The notes beneath the pieces are model-generated. The model made no database searches, was not told the DNA's origin, and saw only the letters and a program-made list of their open reading frames with translations. DNA of 64,000 nt from Patescibacteria group bacterium (GTDB taxonomy: Bacteria; Patescibacteriota; Minisyncoccia; Phycocordibacterales; SBAW01): NCBI GenBank assembly GCA_016176685.1, contig JACOWS010000002.1, forward strand, positions 30,608 to 94,607. The letters are read 5' to 3'. Made by a program: the position numbers and the translations under genes. This document shows, piece after piece, positions 24,944 to 49,795 of this stretch (position 1 is its first letter; each line of letters begins with the position of its first letter).

Positions 24944-25018
24944 AGAAACAAAAAAGTCCTTTGTACAGGAGTAGGGCTCCCGTTCATCTCTCCGGAACAA
25001 AGGACTTTTTTGTTTCTC
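24943..25018. repeat. Family 2 conserved-loop hairpin, copy A (22-bp perfect stem; loop contains GGAGTAGGGCTCCCGTTCATCTCTCC)
   Basis: gagaaacaaaaaagtcctttgt / acaaaggacttttttgtttctc around a 32-nt loop. It fills the gap between the recR stop (+) and the rplU stop (-). Confidence 0.8.
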
Positions 25019-25359
25019 TACGCAATCTTTGTTATCTTTACCTCAAAAAAGGGCTGGCGGTGGCCGCGTTTTTTAAAATAGTTGGACTTTGCTTTGTACT
25101 TGATAACCACCACCTTCTTGGCGCGGTCTATTTTTTGTATCTCTGCCGAAACCTTAGCCCCCGCAATGTAAGGCGTCCCCAAGGTGGTGTCTTTTCCATT
25201 GTCTACCACTAGCACCTTGTCAAAAGTTACCGCGTCGCCAATCGCGTAAGCTCCCTGCTCCGGGCTTGCAGGAGCAAGCTTCTCTATTTTGAGGGTGTCA
25301 CCCTGGGATACCATATACTGTTTCCCGCCGGTTTCTATGATGGCAAACTCCTTTTGCAT
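25018..25359 (-). CDS. rplU: 50S ribosomal protein L21
   Basis: 'MQKEFAIIETGGKQYMVSQGDTLKIEKL' L21 N-terminus. The longer track ORF is a read-through of the adjacent hairpin. Confidence 0.9.
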   Translation of the reverse strand: MQKEFAIIETGGKQYMVSQGDTLKIEKLAPASPEQGAYAIGDAVTFDKVLVVDNGKDTTLGTPYIAGAKVSAEIQKIDRAKKVVVIKYKAKSNYFKKRGHRQPFFEVKITKIA

Positions 25360-25405
25360 GAGCGCTACTATAGCGCAAAAAAACCAGTAATACAAGGTCA
25401 GACTG

Positions 25406-25489
25406 GATGAGAATCCGCAGCCATTTTGGATGGTAAGACTTGGGTCTTTAGCGGCCCGGAGCGCCATCCAAAATGGCTGCGGATTCTCA
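25406..25489 (+). repeat. Family 1 conserved-loop hairpin element, copy 3 (loop variant with a 3-nt insertion)
   Basis: 27-bp perfect stem atgagaatccgcagccattttggatgg / its reverse complement; loop TAAGACTTGGGTCTTTAGCGGCCCGGAGCGC. It lies just 3' of rmuC and 5' of rplU. Confidence 0.85.
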
Positions 25490-25496
25490 TATTGTA

Positions 25497-26600
25497 TTAC
25501 TCCTTCCCTTCCAACTCCGGTTTTTCAACCCCCTCAAGCTCAAAGCCGATCGCCTCGCCGGTGATTTTTAATACGTCTTTATCAATCTTCCCCAGCTCGC
25601 GGCTCCCGCCGTTGTAGTGGTTTATCGTGGTCGAGAGCGAGGCCCCAAGCCGTTTGTAGATATCTTCATACGCCTTCATATGGCGCGAAAGCGCCTCAAC
25701 ATTTTTAGCAATGTCCTTTGCCGCCTCTTCTATCTTAAAGGCCTTAAATCCGTACAGCACCGACTGCAAATAGGCGGCGAAGGTAGTGGGCGAGACAATT
25801 ATCACCTTTTTTTCGTTGTAGGCGTAGTCTATAAGGTTGCGCGTGTTTACCTTAACCGCCCCCACCTCATTTATCAAAAGGTCGTAGTAAATGGCCTCTG
25901 CCGGAATATACATAAAAGCAAACGGCAGTGTGCCGTCTTTGGGCCGCACGTACTTGGCGCTCTCGTCGATACGCGTCTTGAGGTCGTTTTTAAACTGCTT
26001 TTCTAGCTCCTCGCGCTGGGTCTGATCTATCGCATTCACCAGCCGGTTGTAGTTTTCTAAGCTAAACTTGGCATCAACCGGTATGACCCCCTCTTTGGTC
26101 ATAATTACCGCATCCACCGTCTCCCCGCCCGGAAATTCATACTGCATTTTGTAGGCGGTGGGCGGTAAAATGTTGCCCAAAATGAGCTCGAGCGACGCTT
26201 CGCCCAAGTTGCCGCGCTGTTTTTGGTGCGTGAGCACTTTTTCCAGATTTTGCAGCTGCTCGGCCAGGGTAAACACCTGCTTGTTGGACTCCTTCGTTTC
26301 GGCAACGCCCTTAGTTACCTCGAGCAGCTGCTCGGAGACCTGCTTGGTGATGTTGCTCATCAGCCGCTCGGCCTGCTCGGACTGCGTCTTCATGCTTTCA
26401 AACATTCGGTCGGAGCCCTCGCCAAGCTTGTTCTCCACCACCCGAGAAAGGTCTTGCAGCTGGTTTTGCAGGAGCATAAGCCCTTGGCTGTCGGCCAGAG
26501 CGTCCTGTGCGGGACCTGTGGAGCCGCGCCTCCACAACAGATACATAGTCGCTATGTTGCCAAGCACGAGGAACACCAGTAGCAGTATGAGCGGATCCAT
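25497..26600 (-). CDS. rmuC: DNA recombination protein RmuC
   Basis: N-terminal TM helix, long coiled-coil and RmuC C-terminal domain. Confidence 0.8.
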   Translation of the reverse strand: MDPLILLLVFLVLGNIATMYLLWRRGSTGPAQDALADSQGLMLLQNQLQDLSRVVENKLGEGSDRMFESMKTQSEQAERLMSNITKQVSEQLLEVTKGVAETKESNKQVFTLAEQLQNLEKVLTHQKQRGNLGEASLELILGNILPPTAYKMQYEFPGGETVDAVIMTKEGVIPVDAKFSLENYNRLVNAIDQTQREELEKQFKNDLKTRIDESAKYVRPKDGTLPFAFMYIPAEAIYYDLLINEVGAVKVNTRNLIDYAYNEKKVIIVSPTTFAAYLQSVLYGFKAFKIEEAAKDIAKNVEALSRHMKAYEDIYKRLGASLSTTINHYNGGSRELGKIDKDVLKITGEAIGFELEGVEKPELEGKE

Positions 26601-26646
26601 ACTCCCAGTGTATCACGACGCGTTTTTTTGCTATACTTTTTTGCAT

Positions 26647-27099
26647 ATGACACACCTGGAGTTGAAGGAGGCCATCAAAACCACCATGAAGGCAAAAGAC
26701 ACTGTGCGGCTCGGGGTCTTGCGCGGGCTCTCTGCCGCGGCCGTGAACGACTTGGTGGCCAAAAGCCGTAAGCCGGACGAAATGCTAACCGAAGAGGAGT
26801 TGATGACGGTTATCATGCGTGCGGCCAAACAGCGCAAAGACTCGATAGAGCAGTTTGAGAAGGGCGGCCGGCCCGAGCTTGCACAGGGCGAGCGGGCGGA
26901 GCTTGTAATACTCCAAGCACTCCTCCCCTCCCAGCTCTCGCGCGAGGAGATAGAAAAAGCGGTAAAAGAGAAAGCCACCACGCTTGGAGTAACTGACAAA
27001 AGCGGTGCCAATAAGCTCATGGGTATGCTAATGAAAGACCTCAAGGGCAAGGCCGACGGCACGGTAGTTAAGGAAGTCGTTGATTCCCTCTTTTCCTAA
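26647..27099 (+). CDS. GatB/YqeY domain protein
   Basis: 'MTHLELKEAIKTTMKAKDTVRLGVLRGLSAA...' is the typical YqeY family sequence. Confidence 0.8.
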   Translation: MTHLELKEAIKTTMKAKDTVRLGVLRGLSAAAVNDLVAKSRKPDEMLTEEELMTVIMRAAKQRKDSIEQFEKGGRPELAQGERAELVILQALLPSQLSREEIEKAVKEKATTLGVTDKSGANKLMGMLMKDLKGKADGTVVKEVVDSLFS

Positions 27100-27228
27100 A
27101 GTTGGACTTACGAAGTCCAACTTTGGGGACAAATGGCTTGACAAACAAGCAAAAATCTGCATAATCTGTAACGGAAGTGTTGCGTTCCTACCAATCCTAA
27201 AGTTGGACTTACGAAGTCCTACTTTCCA
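27098..27228 (+). promoter_or_regulatory. Consensus sigma70-like promoter (TTGACA at 27138-27143, CATAAT at 27160-27165) flanked by two copies of the 27-bp palindrome AAAGTTGGACT-TACGA-AGTCCAACTTT
   Basis: Palindrome 1 is at 27098-27124 (perfect). Palindrome 2 is at 27199-27225 (one arm degenerate). The -35 and -10 boxes are 16 nt apart. Confidence 0.6.
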
Positions 27229-27250
27229 ATATAGGCGCGAGGAGGCGCAA

Positions 27251-27442
27251 ATGCTCAAATACACACGATGGGAAAAAACAGCCCCACTTCCGTGGGCCTC
27301 TGGCCTGCCGATGAGGCCGGGCGAAACGTCGCGGCGCACACCGGCCCAATCGCTGGCCGACGCCGAAAAGCTCGCGGCAGAAAAACAACGTGCGCGCCTG
27401 CGCGAGCAAGCTCGCAGGCTCGGGGAGAAGTTCGATGAATAA
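27251..27442 (+). CDS. Small hypothetical protein (63 aa, basic/coiled C-terminus); first gene of the GC-rich cassette
   Basis: GAGGAGG Shine-Dalgarno 6 nt upstream of the ATG; the stop overlaps the next ORF's start (ATGAATAA). Confidence 0.5.
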   Translation: MLKYTRWEKTAPLPWASGLPMRPGETSRRTPAQSLADAEKLAAEKQRARLREQARRLGEKFDE

Positions 27443-27779
27443 TATCCCCTTCTCCCCAAATGACGGGGTCCTGCGCTTCAACCTTCTTTCTGGCGATAAG
27501 CTTCGCCAGGCGGAAGAAGAGTGCGCAGGCGTCGTTCGTGTAATCGCCGCGGGGCGATACACTGCGCGGCTGCGGGTTGGTGAGGAGGTGTGGAAGTTTT
27601 TTCTCACCGACGACCCGAGCGTCGAGTTCGCCGCTAGCGGCGGCGATGCAAACTGCGACGACCTGCTGCGCCGCCTGGCTTTCCATCGCGCCGCCGAGGT
27701 GATGCTGGCTCTGCGCCAGGGACACAAGGAGGCCGTGCTCAGCCGCCAGCAAAAAAAACTGGCCAAGGAACCCGCGTAG
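27435..27779 (+). CDS. Hypothetical protein (114 aa); second gene of the GC-rich cassette
   Basis: Translationally coupled to the upstream ORF and followed by a terminator. Antisense ORFs are Arg/Ser-rich, which indicates this is the coding strand. Confidence 0.5.
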   Translation: MNNIPFSPNDGVLRFNLLSGDKLRQAEEECAGVVRVIAAGRYTARLRVGEEVWKFFLTDDPSVEFAASGGDANCDDLLRRLAFHRAAEVMLALRQGHKEAVLSRQQKKLAKEPA

Positions 27780-27788
27780 CAAGTTTCA

Positions 27789-27822
27789 AGGGCGGACGTC
27801 TTTCAGACGTCCGCCCTTTCCT
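27789..27822 (+). terminator. Hairpin terminator (13-bp perfect stem gggcggacgtct/agacgtccgccc)
   Basis: Immediately after the cassette ORFs; followed by TTTCCTATATAT. Confidence 0.55.
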
Positions 27823-27908
27823 ATATATCTAAATACAGTAAAAAACTCCCAAACGCATTAACTTTAAGCTATAGCGTAGAGTTAATGCGTTTACTAATGA
27901 ACTAATGA

Positions 27909-29078
27909 CTAGCGGAGGTATTTTTTGTTTTTGAGTTTGTCGGGCAGGTAGGACTCCTTTTCGCCCGCGGGTGGATATTTTTCATACCCCTCGCCGTATT
28001 TCAACTCTTTCATCAGTTTGGTTGGTGCATTGCGTATTTTGAGCGGCACCGGGAGGTTGCCAAACGCCGCCACGTCCGCCTGCGCCGCGGTGAGTGCGTC
28101 GTACGCGCGCCTATCTTTTTTAGAGCCCGAAAGGTACGCCACCCCGTGTGCCAAGTTTATGGCACACTCCGGGTAGCCGATTTTATTGCACGCTTCAAAC
28201 ACCGCATTGGCCACCACGAGCGCGGTCGGCACTGCCAACCCCACGTCCTCGCTCGCAAATATAACCATACGCCGCGCGATAAACAGCGGGTCCTCCCCCG
28301 CCTCGACCATCCTCGCCAGGTAGTAGAGCGCAGCATCCGCTTGCCCTGCCCGCATCGACTTAATAAACGCGCTAATGGTGTTGTAGTGCTCCTCGCCCTT
28401 TTTGTCGTAGCGCAAGTTTTTGCTCTGTATAGTCTCCTTGAGCGTCTCTATAGATATCTTGCCGTACAGTTTTTGCGCGTTCTCAAGCACGGTTATGGCT
28501 TGCCGCGCGTCTCCCTGCGCCATCTGCACGAGCCAGTTCCTCGCTTCGTTCGGGATTTTCAATCTCGTGCGTTTGATAATTATCTTCATGTCTTTCTCGG
28601 ACAGTTCGTTTAACACAAACACACGGCAACGAGAAAGGAGGGCTGAAATGATTTCAAAACTGGGGTTCTCGGTCGTGGCGCCAATGAGAGTCAGGTCACC
28701 GCGCTCGACATACGGCAGTAAAAAATCCTGCTGCGCTTTGTTAAAGCGGTGTATCTCGTCTATAAAAAGTATTTTTGGCTTGCCGATTTGCAGTTGCCCG
28801 CGCTTCCCTACTATTTTTTTGATGTCCTCCTTGCCGGAGTCTACCGCCGAAAGTTCGTGGAACTCCGCATCAAGCGCGTTGGCGTAGATGCGCGCGAGCG
28901 TTGTTTTGCCGCTACCCGGCGGCCCCCAAAGGATAAAGGAAAAAAGGTGCTTGTTTTTAATAGCTTCCCACAGCGGACCGCCTCGGCCTAAACTCGTCGA
29001 AGACTCCCCTACCAAATGTTCTTGGCCGGAAAATTCCTTGAGACTCTTGGGGCGTATTTGTGATGCCAACGGCTCCAT
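27909..29078 (-). CDS. rarA: Replication-associated recombination protein A (RarA/MgsA AAA+ ATPase)
   Basis: Walker A 'GPPGSGKTTLARIYANAL'; overall RarA architecture. Confidence 0.9.
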   Translation of the reverse strand: MEPLASQIRPKSLKEFSGQEHLVGESSTSLGRGGPLWEAIKNKHLFSFILWGPPGSGKTTLARIYANALDAEFHELSAVDSGKEDIKKIVGKRGQLQIGKPKILFIDEIHRFNKAQQDFLLPYVERGDLTLIGATTENPSFEIISALLSRCRVFVLNELSEKDMKIIIKRTRLKIPNEARNWLVQMAQGDARQAITVLENAQKLYGKISIETLKETIQSKNLRYDKKGEEHYNTISAFIKSMRAGQADAALYYLARMVEAGEDPLFIARRMVIFASEDVGLAVPTALVVANAVFEACNKIGYPECAINLAHGVAYLSGSKKDRRAYDALTAAQADVAAFGNLPVPLKIRNAPTKLMKELKYGEGYEKYPPAGEKESYLPDKLKNKKYLR

Positions 29079-29132
29079 ACCAAGCCAGTATAACCGCTTG
29101 GCATATGCTATGCGATAGTACTTTAAAATTGG

Positions 29133-29789
29133 CTAATTGCCGGTTTCCTGGTTATCGGTAGAGCTTGCAGTAGTGGTTGGTGTTATGGTTGCTCCATTTG
29201 GCATCACCTCTTCTATAGGGAACTCTGTGGCGGAAGTGCCCTCTGTTGATGTGGGGAAGAAGATGCTTCTTACCGCTTCCGTGCCGCCAACTAATTGAGG
29301 GTAAAACCAATAGGCCAGACCTCCCAGACACAAGAGTATCACCAGCACAAAGATAAACAGCCAGGGAACCCGACTTTTGGTTAGTGGCGGGAATATGGCA
29401 GAGGTGCGCGCCGTGCTTGGAGAGACAGGCCCTGTGTCTATTTCCAACCGCGGCATAGTCGACAGTGGAGTTAAATGCACGGACGGTTGTTGCACGGTGA
29501 CAACCGGCTCTTGTGAGCCGCTCTGTGCCATGCGCGCGGCCTCGCCTATGCCGATTGAGACAGTCGGCCGTATTGTTGCAGGAGCTGGTGCCTTTGGCGC
29601 CATAGATGGTTTAGGAGCCATAGGGACCGGCGGTGCTGGAGGTTTTACTACGCCGTCGATAGCATCAAAGGCCTCTTTTGCATCTTGCTCGCTCCACCCG
29701 CCGGTGGCAAGCGCCTTTTTAATAGCATCACGCGAGGCGCCCGCCTTGAGTTGCCCGCGTATGTAAGAAAGTAGCTCTTCGTTAATCAT
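29133..29789 (-). CDS. Hypothetical membrane-anchored protein with Pro/Ala-rich linker
   Basis: 218 aa; N-terminal helical domain, PAPPVPMAPKPSMAPKAPAP linker, one TM helix. Confidence 0.5.
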   Translation of the reverse strand: MINEELLSYIRGQLKAGASRDAIKKALATGGWSEQDAKEAFDAIDGVVKPPAPPVPMAPKPSMAPKAPAPATIRPTVSIGIGEAARMAQSGSQEPVVTVQQPSVHLTPLSTMPRLEIDTGPVSPSTARTSAIFPPLTKSRVPWLFIFVLVILLCLGGLAYWFYPQLVGGTEAVRSIFFPTSTEGTSATEFPIEEVMPNGATITPTTTASSTDNQETGN

Positions 29790-29821
29790 ACTTATTGAAT
29801 TATACCACTATTGTACCACTC

Positions 29822-29894
29822 GCTGACAAGGCAAAAAAAGAGAGTAAGACTTGGCCTAGCGGCCCGGAGCGCTCTCTTTTTTTGCCTTGTCAGC
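29822..29894 (+). repeat. Family 1 conserved-loop hairpin element, copy 4; supplies the last codons and TAG stop of the FAD oxidase gene
   Basis: 22-bp perfect stem gctgacaaggcaaaaaaagaga / its reverse complement around TAAGACTTGGCCTAGCGGCCCGGAGCGC. The minus-strand reading of the arm plus core gives ...ADKAKKESAPGR*. Confidence 0.85.
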
Positions 29895-31631
29895 TGTGGT
29901 AACCGGCAAATCCAGGTGTGCAAACGCGTCGGAAAAGGTCGTCCCCACCTTTTTTCCTGGGTTAAAGATATTTTGCGGGTCAAATATTGACTTTACTTCG
30001 TGGAAGAGTGCAAACATCTCCTTTCCAAACATCTTTTCCACATAGGGCGTGCGGACTAGCCCGTCGTTATGCTCGCCGGTGATAGAGCCGTGGTAGGAAA
30101 GCACCAGGTCGTACACTTTGTGAGAAAGTTCGTCCAGTACCTTTCGCACACCGGGGTCCCGCGGGTCGACCAGAGGAATAATATGAAAGTTGCCGTCGCC
30201 CACATGGCCCGCAACCGTGTAGGTAAGCTTGTAGCGCGAGAGTATCTTTTCAAGTTTCGGCAAAAATTCAACAAGCGACGACGGGGGCACCACAAAGTCG
30301 TCTATAAAAGGGGCGGTGCGGCGGCCGACCACTTTTTTACGCAAGAGGTTAAAACTCTCGCGCCGCACCACCCAGTATTTGCGTGCGGCTCGCTTTGTCT
30401 TTGCAACGCGCACTTTCAGGTGTGTGCGGTTCTGCCTCACCTCCTGTGCAAGAGCTTGGGCTTTTCCTGTTGCCTCTTTTTGGGTCTCGGCACGGAACTC
30501 TACCAAAAGCACCAGCTTGGGCACCCCGCCGGAGAGCACCATCCACACTTCCGGCAAAAATGAGAGCCCCAGTTTAACCAGACCAACTATTCCGCCCAAG
30601 GCGAATTGGCCTTGGGCCGACATTTGTTGGGCAAACTCAAAGAAGTACTTGGTTGCCAGAGTAAACGTATGGTCGTCGTACGACTCAAAGCTGTCCGGCT
30701 CGTGCTTTAAAACCTCCGGCACCACCTCGCCAAGTTCGGACAGCGAGCGGAGGAAAATGACGGTCATCGCGGCATAGGGTTTGGGGCGCACCAGAGTGAA
30801 CCATATTTTTGTGATGATGCCGAGCGTACCCTGGGCTCCCACCATAAGGCGCGCCAAGTTAAGCGAGGGAGTACCGCCTGCCCGGCCTTCCGACGGATCG
30901 CCCACCTCCCACAGCGCATAGCCGGAGGAATTTTTTTCAACCTTTGGTTTGTGCTCCGCTATCACCTTGCGGTGCAGGGGGGTGCTTATCAGTGCGCGGA
31001 CACGGCGGTACACGCTACCTTCCCACGAGTCTTCGGCAAGTTTTTGCTGTAACTCCTCCCCTTCCAGTTTTTTAAAGTGATGTACCGCTCCGTCGGCGCA
31101 CACGACGTCGAGCTTTTCTACATACCGGGCAGTTTTGCCGTATTTTAAGTTCTTTTCCCCGCCGGAGTCGTTGGCAACCATGCCGCCTACGGCGTTGAGC
31201 TCGCGGCTGGCGGTATAGCTTGGGAGTTCCAGCCCCTTCTTCTTCGTCTCTTTGTCAAAGTCGCGGAAAAACATCCCCGGCTCTGCCACCGCATGGCCTG
31301 CCACTCCCGCGGCGCCGGGGATAGCATCAAGCTCCAGCAGGCGGTGTAGGTGTTTAGTGACGTCCAGGACTATAGAGTCGCCCAAGGGGCCTCCACCCAT
31401 GTCTGTACCCGCCGCGCGCGGGGTAATGGAGAGGTGCGTCTTGGGGACCTTTTTCTTTTCGTCTACAAAGCGCACTGCGGCGCAGATATCCTCCGCGTCT
31501 TTTGGATACACTACAACCTGCGGCCGCACGGCAAACAAGCTCGCGTCGCGACTGTAATGCGCCAAGGTCTCTGGCGAGTCATCCACCTCGCCGCGCAGTA
31601 TTTTACGCAGTTCTTCCCCCAAACTGCTCAT
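29856..31631 (-). CDS. FAD-binding oxidoreductase (FAD-linked oxidase, GlcD/D-lactate dehydrogenase-like)
   Basis: PCMH-type FAD-binding domain motifs and a C-terminal oxidase domain; 591 aa. Confidence 0.8.
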   Translation of the reverse strand: MSSLGEELRKILRGEVDDSPETLAHYSRDASLFAVRPQVVVYPKDAEDICAAVRFVDEKKKVPKTHLSITPRAAGTDMGGGPLGDSIVLDVTKHLHRLLELDAIPGAAGVAGHAVAEPGMFFRDFDKETKKKGLELPSYTASRELNAVGGMVANDSGGEKNLKYGKTARYVEKLDVVCADGAVHHFKKLEGEELQQKLAEDSWEGSVYRRVRALISTPLHRKVIAEHKPKVEKNSSGYALWEVGDPSEGRAGGTPSLNLARLMVGAQGTLGIITKIWFTLVRPKPYAAMTVIFLRSLSELGEVVPEVLKHEPDSFESYDDHTFTLATKYFFEFAQQMSAQGQFALGGIVGLVKLGLSFLPEVWMVLSGGVPKLVLLVEFRAETQKEATGKAQALAQEVRQNRTHLKVRVAKTKRAARKYWVVRRESFNLLRKKVVGRRTAPFIDDFVVPPSSLVEFLPKLEKILSRYKLTYTVAGHVGDGNFHIIPLVDPRDPGVRKVLDELSHKVYDLVLSYHGSITGEHNDGLVRTPYVEKMFGKEMFALFHEVKSIFDPQNIFNPGKKVGTTFSDAFAHLDLPVTTADKAKKESAPGR

Positions 31632-48934: not shown

Positions 48935-49012
48935 CAGCCAGCGGAGCAAAAAAAGAGGGCACTCCGGGCCGCTAGGCCAAGTCTAACCCTCTTTTTTTGC
49001 TCCGCTGGCTTG
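48935..49012 (-). repeat. Family 1 conserved-loop hairpin element, copy 6 (core variant TTAGACTTGGCCTAGCGGCCCGGAGTGC); supplies the holB-like C-terminus and TAG stop
   Basis: 25-bp arms cagccagcggagcaaaaaaagaggg / reverse complement. On the gene strand the arm plus core reads ...ASGAKKEG-TAG. Confidence 0.85.
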
Positions 49013-49699
49013 CAGTTGTGGCAAGGTAGCGGCCAAGTGCTCCAGGAGCATTTTGTAGGAGGGGGCGCGGTCGTTTGCGTAGCCGCGGATTTTTGCAATG
49101 TCTTCAAGCCCTTCTCGCACCCTACTATTCCCTTTTGCCAGGTGCGGATACATTTCCACCTCGAGCGCGTCTAAAAATGCGCGCACCGACTCGCGTAGGC
49201 CTTCGTCGTCCCCGACCGAACGACCGGAGTCGTCCGGTCGGGCGGGTTTGAGCATTTTGGCTATTTCCGCACTGCGCGCCGTTTGCGAGCTAGCAAGAAA
49301 TTTCCTGGCAAGCGCATGCTCAACAATGATGGATTTACGAAGTCCATCATTGGGGTATGGAGTCATTCTCGAGCGCAGGGTCGGTATGACCGTGCCATGT
49401 GGAGTTAACAAAACAAAGATGGTCCCCTGCTGCGGCTCTTCAAACAATTTTAAAAGCGCCTGCTGGGCTTCTATGGTCATGGTGGAAACGCCCACTACAA
49501 AAAGCGCGCGGCCCGTGGCCGACCTAAGCCCTGCCGCTTGCCGCAAGGCGCGCGCCTCGCCTATACCAAAAGTCTCTTCACTAACCACCCTAACGTCCGG
49601 GTCACCCTGTTTTGTAAAAGTAAAACGTGTACGCGCATCCTCTACGAGCCCTACAAGGTTTGAAAGAGGCCCTTCAAAAAGGTAGGCGTGGTGCTGCAT
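48983..49699 (-). CDS. holB: DNA polymerase III delta-prime subunit-like (HolB-like clamp-loader subunit)
   Basis: 'ALLKLFEEPQQGTIFVLLTPHGTVIPTLRSR' clamp-loader box; start chosen at MQHHAYLFEGP. Confidence 0.65.
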   Translation of the reverse strand: MQHHAYLFEGPLSNLVGLVEDARTRFTFTKQGDPDVRVVSEETFGIGEARALRQAAGLRSATGRALFVVGVSTMTIEAQQALLKLFEEPQQGTIFVLLTPHGTVIPTLRSRMTPYPNDGLRKSIIVEHALARKFLASSQTARSAEIAKMLKPARPDDSGRSVGDDEGLRESVRAFLDALEVEMYPHLAKGNSRVREGLEDIAKIRGYANDRAPSYKMLLEHLAATLPQLQASGAKKEG

Positions 49700-49710
49700 G
49701 TACGCAGTAT

Positions 49711-49795
49711 AGCGAAGCAAAAACCCTTTGCGAAGGAGTAGGGTTCCCGTTCATCTCTCCTTTGCAAAGGGTTTTTGAGCAGTTTACCGCTTCGC
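49711..49795. repeat. Family 2 conserved-loop hairpin, copy B (loop GGAGTAGGGTTCCCGTTCATCTCTCC; inner 13-bp stem plus outer 7-bp stem)
   Basis: aaaaaccctttgc / gcaaagggttttt plus gcgaagc / gcttcgc. It lies between the mreB-2 stop (-) and the holB-like start (-). Confidence 0.8.

Follow-up and report, generated by a model that had tools for sequence, protein, structure and literature searches.

A small two-gene operon of lineage-restricted families at the slot downstream of yqeY in a patescibacterial genome

Type II toxin-antitoxin (TA) operons, such as relBE, parDE and hicAB, combine two small co-directional genes with an overlapping stop and start and a promoter of their own; palindromes lie near this promoter, the partners can be mixed and their presence varies between close relatives. 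A segment with the same outline is located between yqeY and rarA (27098-27830) in a 64-kb stretch of DNA, hereafter the window, from a Patescibacteria (Paceibacteria-type) metagenome-assembled genome. The segment was found to be an autonomous bicistronic operon that encodes two real proteins, the products of the open reading frames ORF1 and ORF2, of lineage-restricted families (a1 and b1, respectively) resident at the slot after yqeY. Unlike the known TA operons, the a1-b1 pair has no sequence or fold relation to known toxin or antitoxin families, and it keeps one chromosomal position across deep divergence instead of having a patchy, mobile distribution. Moreover, the palindromes found here are not conserved with the gene pair, and the first protein (ORF1) is basic and carries no DNA-binding domain recognisable in Pfam or PDB sequence searches.

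Variable cargo slots, or integration hot-spots, between core genes have been described for defence islands. The present locus resembles them in its conserved flanks (yqeY and rarA), in the unrelated cargo and in flanking proteins that are ~90% identical. It differs in that the cargo is ~0.55 kb and has no integrase or attachment (att) sites, that the resident promoter and terminator are reused, the two breakpoints being the -10 hexamer and the terminator stem, and that the cargo families are known from this slot alone. The exchange of unrelated pairs between a conserved promoter and terminator is unusual, but not unprecedented in kind.

Two further systems are of interest for comparison. In the rpsU-yqeY arrangement of Firmicutes, which provides a lead, the gene of a small basic protein is found beside yqeY. 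The present locus likewise has a gene for a basic protein of ~60-70 amino acids (aa), predicted to be strongly expressed, adjoining yqeY; however, the small genes here are downstream of yqeY, belong to a separate transcription unit and show no match to Ribosomal_S21. In 5' untranslated regions (5'UTRs) that sequester the Shine-Dalgarno (SD) sequence, as RNA thermometers and ribosomal-protein leaders do, a motif rich in pyrimidines, close to the mRNA 5' end, is able to base-pair with the SD. The 5'UTR described below has such a motif, but it belongs to no Rfam family and its pairing energies improve only slightly on those of composition-matched shuffles.

The operon and its counterparts in relatives

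The operon is headed by a sigma-70-type promoter, TTGACA-16-CATAAT (27138-27165, plus strand), which agrees with the consensus at 11 of 12 positions and would place the transcription start near 27172. The SD, read in the sequence as GAGGAGG (27239-27245, plus strand), precedes the ATG of ORF1 by 5 nucleotides (nt). ORF1 (27251-27442, plus strand) encodes 63 aa with an isoelectric point (pI) of 10.3 and ORF2 (27435-27779, plus strand) encodes 114 aa with a pI of 7.8; the stop of the former and the start of the latter overlap in ATGAATAA. A terminator-like hairpin (27788-27818, plus strand) follows, with a perfect GC-rich stem of 14 bp (27788-27801 / 27805-27818), a 3-nt loop and then TTTCC, for which RNA folding gave -26.6 kcal/mol (z = -8.1). 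The original prediction had listed palindromes, a promoter, an SD, two ORFs and a terminator, and all of them were present with small corrections, such as a terminator stem of 14 bp rather than the 13 bp claimed. Its description of a self-contained transcription unit, with its own promoter, SD, two translationally coupled small genes and terminator, was also borne out. The two proposed frames were favoured by codon statistics and by the GC1/GC2/GC3 pattern, and the locus had been assembled identically, and independently, from two sequencing runs.

The closest relative (locus L083) shares 96% amino acid identity in RmuC, 89% in YqeY and 90% in RarA. At the DNA level, 90% identity with the window was observed as far as 27165, where the -10 hexamer ends, and 86% identity again from 27785, before the terminator stem. 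L083 thus keeps the palindrome P1 described below, the promoter up to the -10 hexamer and the terminator of the window. Between the shared promoter and terminator, L083 has two unrelated genes, which encode 69 and 106 aa (type II, as opposed to type I in the window). When the proteins of both cassette types were compared profile to profile with hhalign, the probabilities were below 2%, and the possibility that they are diverged homologues was rejected. To judge from the alignment, the coding content of the slot is replaced between close relatives and the expression signals are conserved, so that the segment, when compared with L083, does behave as the discrete cassette that had been proposed, in the form of an exchangeable unit.

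The small genes (a) and the larger genes (b) of the two types were found in several combinations. Type II 'a' genes are also present in L004, L084, L085 and L097; L097 also has a 'b' gene of type II, and so does L168, where this b2-like gene is the third, after b1. The a1 gene stands alone in L171 and L096, and in L172 it is paired with a different protein of 105 aa. In the contexts recovered, a small gene always preceded b1, whereas a1 can occur alone. The type II proteins are basic (pI 9.9-11).

In every context recovered (L098, L103, L162, L163-L168 and L169-L172), the a1 and b1 genes lie directly 3' of yqeY, within a conserved block that can be written as recR-rplU-rmuC-yqeY-[small gene + larger gene]-(NUDIX)-rarA. 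Genes of the ORF1 and ORF2 families occupy exactly this slot in at least eight independent lineages, with YqeY identity down to ~50%, and no yqeY-rarA junction without a cassette was found among 80 rarA loci and 80 yqeY loci. The proposed insertion into the rarA-yqeY junction was not upheld, since relatives show no empty junction and the families are resident at the slot in these lineages. Conservation at the position with ordinary GC in relatives, together with housekeeping homologues, had been named beforehand as what would speak against the original prediction; conserved position, with raised GC in the relatives as well, was observed, and housekeeping homologues were not. The relatives also share the layout of the unit: the promoter stands right after the yqeY stop, often as TTGCAA-17-TGgTATAAT, and is followed by a GAGGAGG-type SD, a gene overlap of ATGA or ATGAATGA and a terminator. 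The b1 proteins are 37-53% identical where YqeY is ~70% identical, and both identities track each other weakly (rho 0.39). A tblastn search of 50,697 phage and 72,556 plasmid records gave no match.

In some relatives a NUDIX hydrolase gene was observed between the cassette and rarA (L004, 5381-5839; L166, 4723-5187). The gene of L004 (152 aa) is co-directional with rarA, and no such gene is present in the window or in L083. This presence and absence is another sign of a fluid intergenic neighbourhood. In addition, small slot proteins of other relatives have a glycine-rich KGG-like motif (...G.(K/E)GG...) and an acidic tail and look alike by eye; they were seen in L087, L137/L139, L138, L162 (584-847 of the downstream extract) and L167 (4001-4200). 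In L167, the KGG-like gene is translationally coupled to the b1 gene.

The coding part of the cassette has a GC content of 62.6%, compared with a mean of 53.8% for the window, so that it ranks among the highest 0.5% of 529-nt windows, although equally high GC is found in several other parts of the window. The full span (27098-27830) has just 57.7% GC (top 13%), because the promoter and the 5'UTR are AT-rich. In 11 of the 11 loci compared, comprising both cassette types, the GC content of the cassette exceeded that of the locus. The excess therefore belongs to the genes themselves and does not point to recent import. Thus, the claim of raised GC holds for the coding part and is weaker for the whole module of 730 bp, and its value as a sign of foreign origin is lost by its recurrence in relatives.

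The two protein families

Neither ORF1 nor ORF2 gave a match in Pfam, PADLOC, PHROGs or NCBIfam, in agreement with the earlier statement that neither protein belongs to a recognised family. Both genes are already deposited at NCBI as hypothetical proteins (HYS79_01160 for ORF1 and HYS79_01165 for ORF2), and none of the curated libraries searched contains their families. No paralogues of the cassette proteins were found elsewhere in the window.

A word-indexed search of 5.8 billion proteins with ORF2 returned the query itself only. A full HMMER scan of 1.84 billion representatives, in turn, yielded 34 clusters with E<=1e-3, seven of them with E<=1e-10, with lengths of 97-175 aa. Orphan calls made by word-indexed searches are hence not to be trusted for short, fast-evolving proteins. 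The alignment of the b1 family displays the motif D..LR..LL.D..L..AE..PG.VRL..GRY.ARL, a conserved Phe and the motif WHRAAEAMLAVRxGH, which leads into a Lys/Arg-rich tail. No variation was seen at R94, and very little at R41, F55, H84, E88 and H97. With this alignment as input, AlphaFold2 gave a confident model of ORF2, with a predicted local distance difference test score (pLDDT) of 90.2 and a predicted template modelling score (pTM) of 0.81; from the single sequence the model was unusable (pLDDT 43). ORF2, which in view of the 34 clusters is no orphan, is a real protein, since the family alignment yields such a model. The predicted fold comprises two short helices, a four-strand meander and a C-terminal helix of 36 residues.

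HMM searches of Pfam and PADLOC, a profile search of PDB sequences and a fold search detected no toxin, antitoxin or defence family. Foldseek searches with the ORF2 model gave nothing significant against the PDB (best E=0.11, TM <= 0.3) or against the viral structures of BFVD (best E=0.05). The b1 profile gave no significant match among PDB sequences either, the best being a GNAT segment at E=0.18. This match (NAA10) was considered as a lead to a GNAT toxin and rejected, as its E value is insignificant, ORF2 is too short and the fold searches did not support it. Nothing significant was detected for 35 members of the b1 family in Pfam or PADLOC; two isolated PADLOC hits at E ~0.02 were regarded as noise.

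The a1 family was assembled by local jackhmmer and a database profile search and comprises about a dozen basic proteins of 60-73 aa. All of them are annotated as hypothetical proteins, and wherever the source is named it is Paceibacterota or Patescibacteria. Its hallmarks are the motifs F-[AV]-S-G-L-P at the N-terminus and R-[IL]-x-G-E-K-x-D-E at the C-terminus; the other members have an internal stretch of ~20 residues that is missing from ORF1. Neither ORF1 nor the a1 alignment matched a Pfam or PDB sequence, DNA-binding domains such as RHH, HTH/Xre, AbrB and Phd/YefM included. The 'a' proteins were also considered as divergent forms of ribosomal protein S21, and this candidate was rejected because neither the a1 nor the a2 family matched the hidden Markov model (HMM) of Ribosomal_S21 or any other in Pfam.

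Palindromes and the 5' untranslated region

Two palindromes had been described, a perfect one of 27 bp and a degenerate second copy, and both are present, the second with one mismatch. The first (P1, AAAGTTGGACTTACGAAGTCCAACTTT, 27098-27124) is a perfect 11+5+11 palindrome, of which none is expected by chance (100 shuffles). It belongs to a 30-nt hairpin unit (27095-27124, plus strand) that overlaps the yqeY stop codon. As RNA, P1 forms a stem of 17 bp with -23.5 kcal/mol (z = -6.3), which is followed by ACAAAUGG without a U-tract, and the terminator scan gave no call. The P1 sequence is identical in L083 despite the different cassette, and its 15-nt core has no exact match in the other 165 fetched loci. 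We read P1 as the hairpin at the 3' end of the yqeY mRNA, where it would serve termination or stabilisation.

The second palindrome (P2, 27199-27225, plus strand) is a copy of P1. The repeated unit is actually 30 nt long (CCTAAAGTTGGACTTACGAAGTCCnACTTT), with its copies at 27095-27124 and 27196-27225, 101 bp apart. P2 is flanked by direct repeats of CCAAT (27191-27195 and 27226-27230), so that the element with its flanks extends from 27191 to 27230, and its RNA hairpin reaches just -10 kcal/mol. The CCAAT repeats resemble a target-site duplication. P2 is missing from L083, and when P2 and one CCAAT are removed, the 5'UTR aligns to that of L083 with z = 3.2 (a score attained by 15 of 2000 shuffles). 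Because of these flanks, of its absence from L083 and of the alignment restored by its removal, P2 looks like a local insertion of a copy of the P1 hairpin into the 5'UTR. Possibly, the 30-nt unit is a very small palindromic element that is mobile or prone to being copied.

The operator-promoter-operator arrangement that had been suggested did not find support. Operons of the same families (L164, L166, L098 and L103) have no palindromes at their promoters, and P1 and the promoter are also found in L083, next to an unrelated pair. Going by these comparisons, the palindromes are not cassette-specific operators. A third palindrome (CAATGATGGATTTACGAAGTCCATCATTG, 49323-49353, with 13-nt arms) shares with P1 and P2 the core GGAyTTACGAAGTCC and lies inside a minus-strand ORF of 245 aa (48983-49720). 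With one mismatch allowed, the 15-nt core was found three times in the window against 0.14 expected, and the third palindrome may reflect chance or a shared protein-binding site.

A repeat search reported a direct repeat of 58 nt (78% identity) that covers the 3' end of yqeY, and its yqeY-like part alone gave z = 3.2 against shuffles. This part overlaps with TGCGT(T/C)CC, a 5'UTR motif conserved in relatives with different yqeY ends. The 58-nt repeat is weakly supported as the scar of an imported yqeY 3' end, and the conserved motif provides a competing explanation.

In the window this motif (GTGTTGCGTTCCT, 27177-27189, plus strand) is a candidate anti-SD arm that pairs with GAGGAGGCGC(AA) in the minimum free energy fold of the 5'UTR. 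In the form TGCGT(T/C)CC(C)T it was found at the same place of the 5'UTR in L083, L098, L103, L097, L096 and L171, that is, ~10-20 nt past the predicted transcription start in both type I and type II cassettes. In several loci it is able to pair with the SD and the CGC after it (27239-27250). RNAalifold gave no consensus for six 5'UTRs, the SD side having been left unaligned by MAFFT. The motif is a candidate translational gate, with statistics that are weak.

The flanking genes of the slot were assigned as follows. The upstream anchor is yqeY (26647-27099, plus strand), which encodes a GatB/YqeY-domain protein of 150 aa (Pfam PF09424, E=9e-38); its start codon was taken from the DNA alignment with L083. 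The convergent downstream neighbour is rarA/mgsA (27909-29078, minus strand), which encodes 389 aa with matches to PF12002 (MgsA_C), PF16193 (AAA_assoc_2) and AAA. Between the cassette and rarA lies a palindrome with 21-nt arms (27851-27892, minus strand), followed by a T-run on the minus strand; it is the terminator of rarA and is outside the cassette. When this palindrome was compared with that of L083 (5182-5222), a better fit was obtained in reverse complement (40 of 41 bases) than in direct orientation. The imperfect interior of the palindrome therefore appears to have flipped between the window and L083, and hairpin inversion or template switching fits better than four independent substitutions. 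Further upstream, in the region that separates the end of rmuC from the beginning of rplU (L21), an inverted repeat with arms of ~25 nt and a loop of ~30 nt was observed (25409-25488, minus strand). It gave sub-threshold matches to two microRNA models in a cmscan search of Rfam 15, and could be the rmuC terminator or a leader element of rplU.

Interpretation and alternative explanations

The best explanation of these results is that the segment encodes a lineage-specific accessory pair of small proteins in an exchangeable slot downstream of yqeY in Paceibacteria (Patescibacteria), a reading to which we assign a probability of about 0.6. According to it, the near-consensus promoter after yqeY would drive an mRNA that has a strong SD and ~80 nt of 5'UTR, on which the basic 63-aa ORF1 (a1) would be translationally coupled to the structured 114-aa ORF2 (b1) and which would end at the GC-rich hairpin. 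The slot would retain the promoter, the 5'UTR motif, the SD and the terminator, while its coding content would evolve fast and be swapped by recombination, small 'a' and larger 'b' genes combining differently among slots. ORF1 and ORF2 would act together as a strongly expressed, non-essential accessory pair, and the anti-SD stem in the 5'UTR may gate their translation. Nucleic-acid binding would be the likeliest activity, because of the pI of ORF1 (10.3) and of the type II proteins (9.9-11) and because the C-terminal helix of ORF2 is basic, b1 having a Lys/Arg-rich C-terminal tail.

Several points weigh against this explanation. Charge is the single property that points to nucleic-acid binding. 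The rule that b1 never occurs without a small gene and that a1 can stand alone is also predicted by toxin-antitoxin logic, and it is typically accessory, defence or addiction cargo, and not a conserved cellular function, that is found replaced with an unrelated pair in a close relative. The hint of vertical descent given by the rho of 0.39 is weak, and the pairs compared are not independent. The anti-SD duplex energies are just modestly better than those of shuffles. Finally, the contexts of the relatives come from metagenome fragments, and further copies or paralogues were looked for within 64 kb of this genome.

The rival that survives best, although we hold it to be rather unlikely, is a novel type II TA system of an addiction or abortive-infection-like kind, in which ORF1 would be a labile antitoxin, ORF2 a toxin of new fold and P1 and P2 the operators of autorepression. 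The small bicistronic layout, with a stop/start overlap, its own promoter and the small gene before the larger one, agrees with it, as do the unrelated pairs at the same site in close relatives, the shuffling of 'a' and 'b' partners and the constant company of b1 by an upstream small gene, with a1 found alone. The nearly invariant polar residues of b1 (R41, H84, E88, R94 and H97) could form an active site, and the helix-helix-beta-sheet-helix order of the ORF2 model loosely recalls that of RelE/ParE-type toxins. On the other hand, no HMM of a toxin, antitoxin or defence family matched ORF1, ORF2 or the 35 b1 members, the profile search against PDB sequences gave nothing significant, and the PDB searched with Foldseek at the E and TM values given above contains many RelE, ParE, MazF, PIN and HicA structures. 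PADLOC-DB 2.0 gave no match to ORF1 or ORF2 at E<=10. The fixed chromosomal context over deep divergence, with no match in the phage and plasmid collections, also argues against a TA system. So do the lack of promoter palindromes in the other a1-b1 operons and the presence of P1 in a genome that carries an unrelated pair (L083). The charge pattern is atypical as well, with a pI of 10.3 (basic) for the putative antitoxin and of 7.8 (near neutral) for the putative toxin. Of the features of type II TA systems, the co-directional operon of small genes was found here; a known toxin superfamily such as RelE/ParE, MazF/CcdB, PIN, Doc/Fic, HipA, GNAT, HicA, MqsR or zeta, pair-linked operators and a patchy mobile distribution were not. 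The original prediction of a TA or defence module hence stands as far as the two-gene layout is concerned, and not with respect to toxin homology, pair-linked operators, mobile distribution or a match to a defence family.

A bolder possibility, which we also regard as doubtful, is that the slot is a dedicated expression platform, consisting of promoter, 5'UTR gate and terminator, for modules that are swapped like alleles, and that a1-b1 would be an undescribed TA-like or immunity system with an effector fold outside the PDB.

An explanation of still lower probability is that a foreign, GC-rich mobile cassette was recently placed between rarA and yqeY, the repeated palindrome being a scar of attachment or target duplication. 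Such an import would account for the high rank of the coding part for GC within the window, for the 58-nt direct repeat that includes the yqeY 3' end, with z = 3.2 for its yqeY-like part, and for a cassette wholly unlike that of the closest relative. However, the same families reside at the exact slot in many lineages, and raised GC is typical of these genes everywhere. The repeat copies, 101 bp apart, enclose the promoter only and not the genes; the yqeY-like stretch overlaps the 5'UTR motif conserved in relatives with different yqeY ends; and there is no integrase, transposase or recombinase ORF at the locus and no phage or plasmid match. Exchange between related slot alleles fits the data better than does an import of the cassette from beyond the clade.

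Least probable by far is that neither ORF is genuine and that a structured non-coding RNA is transcribed from the GC-rich segment: between the promoter and the terminator there are indeed ~650 nt that are rich in GC and have open frames on either strand, and the word-indexed search returned ORF2 alone, but the protein-level conservation of motifs over the 34 ORF2-related clusters, the confident AlphaFold2 model from the family alignment, the GC1/GC2/GC3 pattern and codon scores that fit two frames, and the frames and stop/start overlap kept in relatives all contradict it, and it was rejected after a cmscan search of 25000-30000 with Rfam 15 gave nothing in the segment even at E<=1 and the tRNA and transfer-messenger RNA scan nothing relevant.

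With regard to the accessory pair, ORF2 would be a tractable target, being a protein of 114 aa with a confidently predicted fold that has no match in the PDB or in the viral set. The members of the Candidate Phyla Radiation (CPR) have tiny genomes in which a large share of the genes is without known function. Our results indicate that some orphan-looking CPR genes are small, fast-evolving families tied to one chromosomal slot, and the occurrence of unrelated pairs in close relatives points to strong diversifying or conflict-driven selection in these episymbionts.

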